A stretch of DNA of 21,502 bases from a virus. Taxonomy: Duplodnaviria; Heunggongvirae; Uroviricota; Caudoviricetes. The DNA lies in the IMG/VR virus record IMGVR_UViG_2541047680_000007; one strand, given 5' to 3'. This document shows positions 17,455 to 17,781 of the stretch, piece after piece. A model generated the notes under the pieces. It made no database searches, was not told where the DNA came from, and saw only the letters and a program-made list of their open reading frames with translations. The position numbers and the translations under genes were made by a program. How positions within the stretch are numbered: position 1 is the first letter of the stretch; each line of letters starts with the position of its first letter.

Positions 17455-17781
17455 TCAAGGACGTGACGGCGTAAAGATAAATTGTCTCTTCACTCCCTGA
17501 CAGGGGCGATTCTTTTCAAATCGCCATTTCGCCATGGCCTTCACCACTTCATCACGAAACAAATTATGAGGCTCTGAGCGGAGAAAAACGATCCGTGTCA
17601 CAGTCCCATCAGCACCAATATCGAACTTAACCTCAACCAGCCCCTTGATATAATTTGCTGCAGCATATTCCGGATATCGTGGATACACCGTCACTAATTG
17701 CCGGGGCTCATCAGCTTTTTGCTGCGAGCATCCCACTGCCAGGACAGATAACAGAAAAAGTAGTAAAAGGCGTCTTTTCAT
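17455..17781 (-). CDS. Lipoprotein with a TonB C-terminal-domain-like fold (moron between cos and bor)
   Basis: Trimmed to ATG 17781 (MKRRLLLLFLLSVLAVGC SQQ...), a signal peptide with lipobox ending at Cys. The mature part YPRYPEYAAANYIKGLVEVKFDIGADGTVTRIVFLRSEPHNLFRDEVVKAMAKWRFE aligns motif-for-motif with the E. coli TonB C-terminal domain ([54 protein letters not shown]). Confidence 0.7.
   Translation of the reverse strand: MKRRLLLLFLLSVLAVGCSQQKADEPRQLVTVYPRYPEYAAANYIKGLVEVKFDIGADGTVTRIVFLRSEPHNLFRDEVVKAMAKWRFEKNRPCQGVKRQFIFTPSRP

Follow-up and report, generated by a model that had tools for sequence, protein, structure and literature searches.

A prophage-encoded lipoprotein with a TonB C-terminal domain: a conserved enterobacterial family with predicted Fur operators and a possible role as a TonB-box decoy

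Introduction

TonB-dependent transporters (TBDTs) are the entry route for siderophores and vitamin B12, and also for many phages, group-B colicins, microcins and 'Trojan-horse' siderophore antibiotics. There are precedents for interference at this gate. As summarized in one article (PMC9841981), overexpression of a periplasmic domain of TonB inhibits the import of iron by TBDTs (citing Howard, 2001) and a TonB-box pentapeptide reduces TonB-mediated killing by colicins and infection by phi80 (citing Tuckman and Osburne, 1992). Among phage proteins, Llp binds the periplasmic face of FhuA, and Cor is the only entry for TonB-dependent receptors in a 2024 review of superinfection exclusion. Here, we consider a small gene at positions 17455..17781, on the minus strand, of a 21,502-nucleotide stretch of viral DNA (IMG/VR record IMGVR_UViG_2541047680_000007, Caudoviricetes; the whole of this stretch is referred to below as the window). 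The window is a phage-21-like lambdoid prophage with its late genes on the minus strand, and the gene encodes a predicted lipoprotein, the mature part of which is a TonB C-terminal domain.

The gene and the domain have already been annotated, and the bare observation is therefore not new. The window protein is 100% identical (tblastn) to CPT_21_73 of phage 21 (UMO75484.1, 'TonB C-terminal domain protein'), and the identical protein is also found in phages ev017 and Perceval and in three ECOR-derived phages. It is described in one ev017 record as a 'Partial tonB-like membrane protein encoded within prophage CP-933N', and in Escherichia coli the name given by the Prokaryotic Genome Annotation Pipeline (PGAP) is 'TonB family protein'. 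The initial annotation of the window, made by a model from the sequence alone, had not recognized the gene as a described lambdoid gene. As far as annotation is concerned this was mistaken, but with respect to function it appears to hold, since full-text literature searches found no functional study of the gene. On morons, the phage 21 genome announcement states no more than that those of 21 and lambda differ (PMC9119081). A 651-bp query spanning the gene has matches in 1225 of 5426 complete E. coli genomes (~22%), 1203 of them at an identity of at least 99%. The copy in Nissle 1917 (WP_000830178.1) adjoins iss and is 100% identical over this query. What appears to be new is the conserved lipoprotein family to which the protein belongs, its predicted Fur operators and a fixed position after the lysis genes in phages of several genera.

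The protein and its TonB C-terminal domain

The reading frame begins with the ATG at 17781 and ends with the stop codon at 17455-17457 on the minus strand (open reading frame list and sequence). The product has 108 residues and not 109, the length first given, since codon 109 is the stop.

The likeness to TonB's C-terminal domain that the initial annotation had reported is borne out by profile searches. Pfam TonB_C (PF03544) matches with 49.2 bits against a cut-off of 24.6 (E=7e-13) and is the only Pfam match of the protein, and TIGR01352 matches with 47.4 bits against a cut-off of 27.1; the protein is a member of both families. In a phmmer search of the PDB the structures of the E. coli TonB C-terminal domain came out on top (1u07, E=1.4e-14). 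Residues 24-103 pair without gaps with residues 151-230 of E. coli TonB, and 32 of 85 residues are identical. The protein is not a member of the TonB equivalog families (NF008080-NF008084, PRK10819), for which the best score is 69 bits against a cut-off of 315. The PRK10819 models are nevertheless the top matches, which places the domain closest to enterobacterial TonB proper.

The structural comparison suggested by the initial annotation gave a similar picture. We used an AlphaFold2 model that was run with a 40-sequence alignment, a run on the single sequence being poor with a predicted local distance difference test score (pLDDT) of 51. The mean pLDDT of the model is 86, with values above 95 in the domain. 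Foldseek aligned it to 1u07, 2gsk_B and 2grx_C with template-modelling scores of 0.91-0.92 (normalized to the target) and root-mean-square deviations (rmsd) of 0.9-1.5 Å. Superposition on TonB in the BtuB:TonB complex (2gsk_B) gave an rmsd of 1.0 Å over 79 columns, and the value for the FhuA:TonB complex (2grx_C) is 0.9 Å. The modelled protein had no significant match amongst the viral structures in BFVD. The model has the TonB_C fold, a three-stranded sheet on two helices with the YP motif and the Gly/Phe/Trp core. Its secondary structure consists of a strand at residues 28-30, a helix at 38-42, strands at 47-55 and 61-70, a second helix at 76-83 and a last strand at 94-103. Core residues of TonB are retained (Y163, P164, G186, F202, W213 and F230, which correspond to Y36, P37, G59, F75, W86 and F103), and strand beta3 (94-103) is complete. 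Residues of beta3 in TonB have been proposed to touch the TonB box of FhuA.

Two parts of TonB are lacking, as had been noticed at the outset and as the sequence of only 108 residues confirms. No membrane anchor is present, the N-terminus being a cleavable lipoprotein signal with Cys18, and there is no Pro-rich spacer, with just the seven residues S19-E25 between Cys18 and the start of the domain at P26. The signal is laid out as MKRR-LLLLFLLSVL-AVG-C18-S19, with a positive n-region, a hydrophobic core and the lipobox cysteine (LAVG before C18), as expected of an outer-membrane lipoprotein. Sorting of lipoproteins depends on the residue at position +2. Here it is Ser19 and not the Lol-avoidance Asp, and sorting to the outer membrane is therefore predicted; we infer that the lipoprotein sits in that membrane.

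The gene is functional and under purifying selection. A second E. coli allele, in Stx1a-converting phages, has 72% protein and 73% DNA identity to that of the window, and in the comparison of these two alleles dN/dS (the ratio of nonsynonymous to synonymous substitution rates) is 0.12 at a dS of 1.46. Rfam and tRNA searches gave no match.

A lipoprotein-plus-TonB_C family and its position in phage genomes

An exhaustive profile-free search returned 2795 TonB_C proteins at E <=0.001. Amongst the best of these are about 20 proteins of 100-135 residues that align over their full length, including the signal peptide. Profile searches and retrieval of the loci delineate a coherent family of lipoprotein-plus-TonB_C proteins of 106-133 residues with a lipobox cysteine and a tether of 8-16 residues in front of the domain. 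Members occur in Escherichia, Salmonella, Klebsiella, Raoultella, Rahnella, Erwinia and Serratia, on chromosomes, plasmids and prophages across the Enterobacterales. A pattern search flagged the lipobox cysteine in 33 of 33 short secreted members, and in nearly all of the family members listed it is followed by S, T or A. The lipobox is absent from two sister groups, in Serratia and in Erwinia rhapontici, which carry an ordinary signal peptide in its place.

Column statistics were derived from 24 family sequences, and C18 is invariant in all 24. The TonB core is retained throughout the family (P34, Y36, P37, A40, G47, V49, G59, P71, F75, A82, W86 and P93). A further set of conserved positions is specific to the family: C18; Y39 and N43 on helix 1, which correspond to R166 and L170 of TonB; and D54, L74, V79 and E89.

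Close relatives of the lipoprotein gene are carried by 218 viral contigs, and the position of the gene in phage genomes is conserved. In phage 21 it lies right after the lysis cassette and before the terminase. The same slot is occupied in a Rahnella prophage (GH19 endolysin, DUF1441/gpA terminase), in the Klebsiella phage ST13-OXA48phi12.4, in a Salmonella prophage (GH19 endolysin, HNH endonuclease, P27-type small terminase) and in Stx1a phages. An Rz or endolysin gene lies 136-2313 nt upstream on the same strand in 42 of 46 diverse IMG/VR loci, and amongst these 46 loci the types of endolysin and of downstream terminase vary. The neighbours of chromosomal copies are unremarkable, for example a LacI-family regulator, hydrolases, DsbB/NhaB, AraA or a cellulose-synthesis locus. 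Other copies are on K. pneumoniae IncF plasmids, one of which is named pKP43_vir_amr.

Some further observations were made on these sequences. Many of the best matches outside the family are long proteins (344-1308 residues) with 3-6 tandem TonB_C-like stretches. A DUF1440 membrane-protein gene (locus 7738-8301) lies ~400 bp downstream of a chromosomal Raoultella copy, and another DUF1440 gene (locus 232-858) ~3 kb upstream of a Klebsiella-phage copy, an arrangement that may be coincidental or a remnant of co-capture. A 418-bp contig assigned to 'Modestobacter excelsi' (NZ_SJEX01000172.1) encodes residues 1-67 of the E. coli protein with 100% identity, and is almost certainly E. coli or phage contamination of an actinobacterial assembly. 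In the Klebsiella phage MK422450.1 the coding sequence QBQ71922.1 (locus 3923-4291) has been given a start 11 codons too early (MLIYIHGIGVF-MKKGF...), inside Fur-box-like sequence, a probable annotation error.

Predicted Fur boxes and the transcription of the window allele

We scored Fur boxes as matches to a 19-mer consensus (GATAATGATAATCATTATC, or a 7-1-7 dyad) in the 150-250 nt upstream of family genes, and took the best match upstream of 200 long open reading frames in the same loci as the control. The mode in these 200 control regions was 10 of 19, with one case of 14 and none of 15. Relatives of the window gene, whether chromosomal, plasmid or phage-borne, have matches of 14-17/19 directly upstream, several of them with the perfect dyad TGATAATnATTATCA. 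The score is 17/19 in Serratia grimesii, 16/19 in Klebsiella sp. R390, which has the perfect dyad TGATAATTATTATCA, and 15/19 in Raoultella lignicola, R. ornithinolytica, R. planticola and Klebsiella sp. I138. Three metagenomic members score 15-17/19, and a second R. planticola copy and the K. pneumoniae plasmid copy 14/19. In phages, scores are 15-16/19 for the Salmonella-type clade, where the same perfect dyad as in R390 lies 14-15 nt before the start, 15-16/19 for a further clade and 12-14/19 for the Klebsiella-phage clade. The Stx1a-type E. coli allele has a palindrome that scores 13/19. No Fur box was found upstream of the soluble Serratia and Erwinia groups.

The predicted boxes strongly suggest that the lipoprotein-plus-TonB_C family belongs to the iron-starvation regulon, and since they lie upstream of most members they tie the family to iron/TonB physiology. 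The upstream region with its box has been kept in the Salmonella and other phage clades, which suggests that several phage lineages carry it as a genuine conversion gene under iron regulation.

The allele of the window and of phage 21 is different. With a score of 10-11/19 it is not placed in the Fur regulon. The left half (AGAATAAGA) of the palindrome that is complete in the Stx1a-phage allele is present, and the right half is gone through a deletion of 13 nt relative to that allele. No sigma-70 promoter match of at least 9/12 was found on the strand of the gene, and a laxer scan gave only 8/12 matches. No convincing terminator follows the gene (hairpin z = -1.05), and its GC content of 0.48 is like that of its surroundings; that of the bor/iss region is about 0.39-0.42. 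In the initial annotation the gene was assigned to a cos-proximal moron slot next to bor on the late-gene strand. The position is correct, between bor/iss and Nu1 and ~760 bp from cos by comparison with phage 21. Since a recognizable promoter, terminator or unusual base composition is lacking, the window allele hardly resembles an autonomous moron, and on the simplest reading it belongs to the late transcript. The lysis cassette (18587..19757, minus strand) is upstream of the gene in the same late transcription unit, so that the gene occupies a 'post-lysis' slot. These features suggest that the window allele has come under late-operon control, and its expression probably depends on read-through of the Q-dependent late transcript rather than on iron starvation.

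Proposed function and alternatives

We consider that the lipoprotein may act as a decoy, in which an outer-membrane-tethered TonB C-terminal domain, unable to transduce energy, competes at TonB boxes and so damps TonB-dependent entry. We put the probability of this tentative reading at roughly 0.45. The initial annotation had already suggested interference of this kind at TonB boxes, an idea that we regard as plausible. A small lipoprotein would hang from the inner leaflet of the outer membrane by a tether of about eight residues. It would carry the docking domain without a link to ExbB/ExbD, and for want of that link energy transduction would be impossible. It would occupy TonB boxes at the periplasmic face of TBDTs, and possibly also bind those of incoming group-B colicins; a protein that binds TonB boxes must compete with the real TonB. 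Entry of TonB-dependent phages (T1, phi80), colicins and microcins would be damped, and that of siderophores and B12 to some degree. Both the binding to TonB boxes and the inhibitory direction of the effect are what we infer. In favour we count the fold with its retained TonB core and complete strand beta3, the purifying selection, the predicted Fur boxes, the conserved post-lysis slot in phages and the lipobox found throughout the family, as well as the precedents of periplasmic TonB domains, TonB-box peptides, Llp and Cor. The receptor of phage 21 is LamB, and a block of the Ton system would therefore spare the phage's own spread whilst it would exclude Ton-dependent competitors and toxins. 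Fur control would fit a defence that scales with the derepression of receptors.

Several points weigh against the decoy. Residues of TonB that genetics or crystallography implicate in the contact with TBDTs are replaced (Q160 by Y33, R166 by Y39, R204 by D77, V225/V226 by K98/R99 and K231 by T104). Inhibition of iron uptake during starvation would be costly, and a protein that does no more than inhibit iron uptake would hardly be expected to be induced, under the predicted Fur control, together with siderophore receptors. The window allele has no recognizable promoter of its own, and it may not be expressed in lysogens. A panel of phage genes found none near the chromosomal copies, and many members are plain chromosomal genes. 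PADLOC gave no match to the gene. Lastly, a link to a colicin that had been taken as support was dropped. Serratia has a module (chromosome 8001-10510; KfrA-bearing contigs 5001-7447) of a soluble TonB_C-only protein with a signal peptide, a colicin-E1-type immunity protein and a convergent pore-forming colicin, and these three genes recur in two unrelated backgrounds. DSMTV at residues 17-21 of the colicin had been read as a TonB box, an assignment abandoned after a sequence search of the PDB (3iax_B, 3qdr_B). The N-terminus of the colicin is homologous to the TolB/TolA-binding translocation region of colicin A, and the colicin is for this reason probably Tol-dependent.

A more general version of the decoy would be a Fur-controlled TonB-domain mimic of the outer membrane that serves as a generic TonB-box trap, a hitherto unrecognized component of the Ton system, common to enterobacteria and their temperate phages, that shuts the gate to phages, colicins and microcins when iron starvation derepresses the receptors. 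We regard this as doubtful.

The same Fur boxes can be read in another way, since the regulon to which they point is that which switches iron uptake on. The lipoprotein could then be an accessory factor that aids TonB-dependent uptake during iron starvation or is neutral to it, and prophages would carry it because the host gains in fitness when iron is limiting. It might hold or protect exposed TonB boxes, recruit TonB's C-terminal domain to the outer membrane or bind an imported substrate. FusB, a homologue of TonB, binds ferredoxin, and its substrate-binding C-terminal domain is amongst the best structural matches (7zc8, 9hi3). The many plain chromosomal copies accord with such a role, and the conserved surface residues Y39 and N43 on helix 1 suggest a dedicated partner unlike that of TonB. 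We consider an accessory role unlikely nevertheless, since a domain without a link to ExbBD is unable to energize transport, the sole experimental precedent for free TonB C-terminal domains is inhibition and no linked transporter, siderophore or exbBD genes are present in the contexts examined. Somewhat less probable again is reuse of the TonB_C fold for a different partner, such as peptidoglycan, an outer-membrane protein or TonB/ExbD, in an envelope tether or a stress or virulence lipoprotein. The replaced contact residues would be explained, strand addition allows the related TolAIII fold to bind a variety of partners and the gene lies beside iss, which encodes a serum-survival lipoprotein; but the linkage to iss is not kept in other phage clades, the predicted Fur boxes point to iron and, as the PRK10819 matches indicate, the domain resembles enterobacterial TonB most closely.

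Two further explanations can be given very little weight. That the protein is a lysis accessory protein or spanin is suggested by a match to phrog_1267 ('Rz-like spanin', E=5e-43) and by the lysis cassette that precedes the gene on the same strand in 42 of the 46 viral loci. The other strong PHROG match is to a TonB-like family. The prophage in the window has its own complete Rz/Rz1 pair, and Rz1 resembles phrog_1267 only over the signal and lipobox (residues 5-49, E=1e-4), for which reasons the label looks like an annotation error that arose from similarity between lipoprotein signals, the members probably being TonB_C lipoproteins. Moreover, the mature protein of 91 residues consists of a globular TonB_C domain, unlike an o-spanin, which is short and Pro-rich, so that it does not belong with the spanins, and chromosomal members have no lysis genes nearby. 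The least probable explanation, that a phage has picked up a decaying fragment of tonB, has in its favour a 'partial/truncated tonB-like' label in the ev017 record and in one E. coli protein record. It is effectively refuted because dN/dS is 0.12 with synonymous sites near saturation (dS ~1.5). In addition, the reading frame is intact in more than 1200 genomes and has acquired a lipoprotein signal that is conserved across the family.

To return to the decoy, a natural TonB decoy in the outer membrane, if that is what the lipoprotein is, would be a one-protein, broad-spectrum modulator of every kind of entry that passes through the TBDTs. The carriers include ~22% of complete E. coli genomes, amongst them the probiotic Nissle 1917, as well as Stx1a phages, K. 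pneumoniae IncF plasmids and Salmonella prophages. The gene could affect competition by colicins and microcins in the gut, the host range of phages used in therapy and susceptibility to siderophore-drug conjugates, and the Fur boxes yield a concrete regulatory prediction.

The surrounding prophage

The features of the window are listed in Table 1. The 45-residue open reading frame directly upstream of the lipoprotein gene had no PHROG or PADLOC match.

Table 1. Features of the lipoprotein gene and of the prophage around it (window coordinates)
Feature	Position	Strand	Basis or remark
Tape-measure protein	694-3255	-	
Major capsid protein	6604-7632	-	
Head protease (Peptidase_S49)	8074-9579	-	
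Portal protein	9569-11191	-	
Terminase large subunit gpA, C-terminal part	11348-13024	-	
IS66-family element splitting gpA	13108-15723	-	
gpA, N-terminal part	15723-16025	-	
Nu1	15955-16503	-	
TonB_C-type lipoprotein coding sequence, 108-residue precursor	17455..17781	-	Open reading frame list, sequence
TonB_C domain, residues 26-104	17470..17706	-	Pfam, NCBIfam and PDB sequence matches, AlphaFold2 model, Foldseek, column conservation
Cys18 codon, predicted lipid-modified first mature residue	17728..17730	-	Sequence
Signal peptide, residues 1-17 (MKRRLLLLFLLSVLAVG), lipobox at end	17731..17781	-	Read from sequence
Shine-Dalgarno sequence AGGA, 6 nt before ATG	17788..17791	-	Sequence; ribosome-binding site also marked by phage 21 annotators
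Left half of the palindrome complete in the Stx1a-phage allele	17797..17805	-	Pairwise upstream alignment, Fur-box scoring
45-residue open reading frame, hypothetical CPT_21_72 in phage 21; doubtful gene	17799..17936	-	Open reading frame list
bor/iss gene (Bor-like)	18259-18555	+	
Rz	18587-19060	-	PHROG match, phage 21 annotation
Rz1, embedded in Rz	18646-18828	-	PHROG match, phage 21 annotation
SAR (signal-anchor-release) endolysin	19045-19542	-	PHROG match, phage 21 annotation
Pinholin	19542-19757	-	PHROG match, phage 21 annotation
Porin gene	20286-21317	+	Porin_1, E=3e-126

The element that splits gpA has open reading frames at 15046-15723, 14699-15046 (TnpB_IS66 match) and 13108-14679 (DDE_Tnp_IS66 match). 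With gpA interrupted in this way the prophage of the window should be unable to package DNA. The otherwise matching prophage of Nissle 1917 has an intact terminase.

For the bor-like neighbour of the lipoprotein gene, the PGAP annotation in Nissle 1917 is Iss, the increased-serum-survival lipoprotein. Having iss as its neighbour, the TonB_C lipoprotein gene thus directly adjoins a widely used virulence marker of extraintestinal pathogenic and avian pathogenic E. coli. The porin gene upstream of the lysis genes is full-length and encodes a general porin. At the equivalent position in Nissle 1917, between the Q antiterminator and the lysis genes, the gene is annotated 'porin OmpC', and the porin is another surface-remodelling cargo gene of the prophage. 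On the plus strand, a cos-proximal and unannotated open reading frame (16771-17091) contains an internal Met and, after it, a stretch that resembles a signal peptide (MKIRNILAISLATSSFSCLA...), but may well be a chance reading frame.

Between iss/bor and the TonB_C gene there is a non-coding stretch of ~190 nt (17900-18095). In the upstream alignment of the two E. coli alleles the mean column identity is 82%, and visibly higher over this stretch, against 73% in the coding sequence. The element is present in 4583 of 5426 E. coli genomes (84%), with a median of two and a maximum of 11 copies, and at 695 plasmid sites. It has several hairpins that differ in their loops but have retained their stems; the z-score of the fold is only -2.0, and there was no Rfam match. 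We considered it as a regulator specific to the gene and rejected the idea, since it is a general lambdoid element that lies beside iss/bor and occurs in 84% of E. coli genomes.

Comparison with known systems

The closest relative in structure is TonB itself (E. coli P02929, residues ~150-239), which has the same fold (rmsd 0.9-1.5 Å) and is about 38% identical over 85 residues aligned without gaps. The YP motif, G186, F202, W213, F230 and strand beta3 are common to both. TonB has an N-terminal anchor (the His20 region) and a Pro-rich rod; the window lipoprotein has neither, and no coupling to ExbB/ExbD. Whereas TonB is held in the inner membrane, the lipoprotein is predicted to be anchored by lipid in the opposite one. 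After beta3, TonB continues with a tail of nine residues and the lipoprotein with five.

Recombinant periplasmic fragments of TonB, as they are described in the cited account of the work of Howard et al. (2001, J Bacteriol 183:5885), likewise consist of the TonB domain without the energy-coupling N-terminus, and serve as a model for the window protein. They are artificial, soluble and overexpressed, whereas the window protein is a natural, diverged and lipid-anchored paralogue with its own regulation.

In its setting the gene resembles that of Bor/Iss (lambda bor; the adjacent bor/iss gene in the window), which also encodes a small outer-membrane lipoprotein and is one of the accessory genes that lambdoid phages have between lysis and cos. 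Bor/Iss has an unrelated fold, and its gene lies on the opposite strand in a region of lower GC content (about 0.39-0.42 against about 0.48). In lysogens, Bor is expressed from a promoter of its own.

In their proposed target the nearest parallels are Llp of T5 and Cor of phi80, N15, HK022 and mEp167. These are also small phage-encoded outer-membrane lipoproteins, and they inactivate a TBDT, FhuA. They share a fold of their own and have no relation in sequence or fold to the window lipoprotein, which is not a member of the Cor/Llp family; the llp and cor genes are located elsewhere in the phage genome. Llp and Cor are specific for FhuA and act allosterically on its extracellular loops, whereas a mimic of TonB would be generic for TonB boxes. 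If the decoy is correct, a superinfecting phage or a bacteriocin would be excluded by mimicry of the energy transducer, as opposed to the blocking of one receptor, and in the form of a generic trap this would be the first such case.

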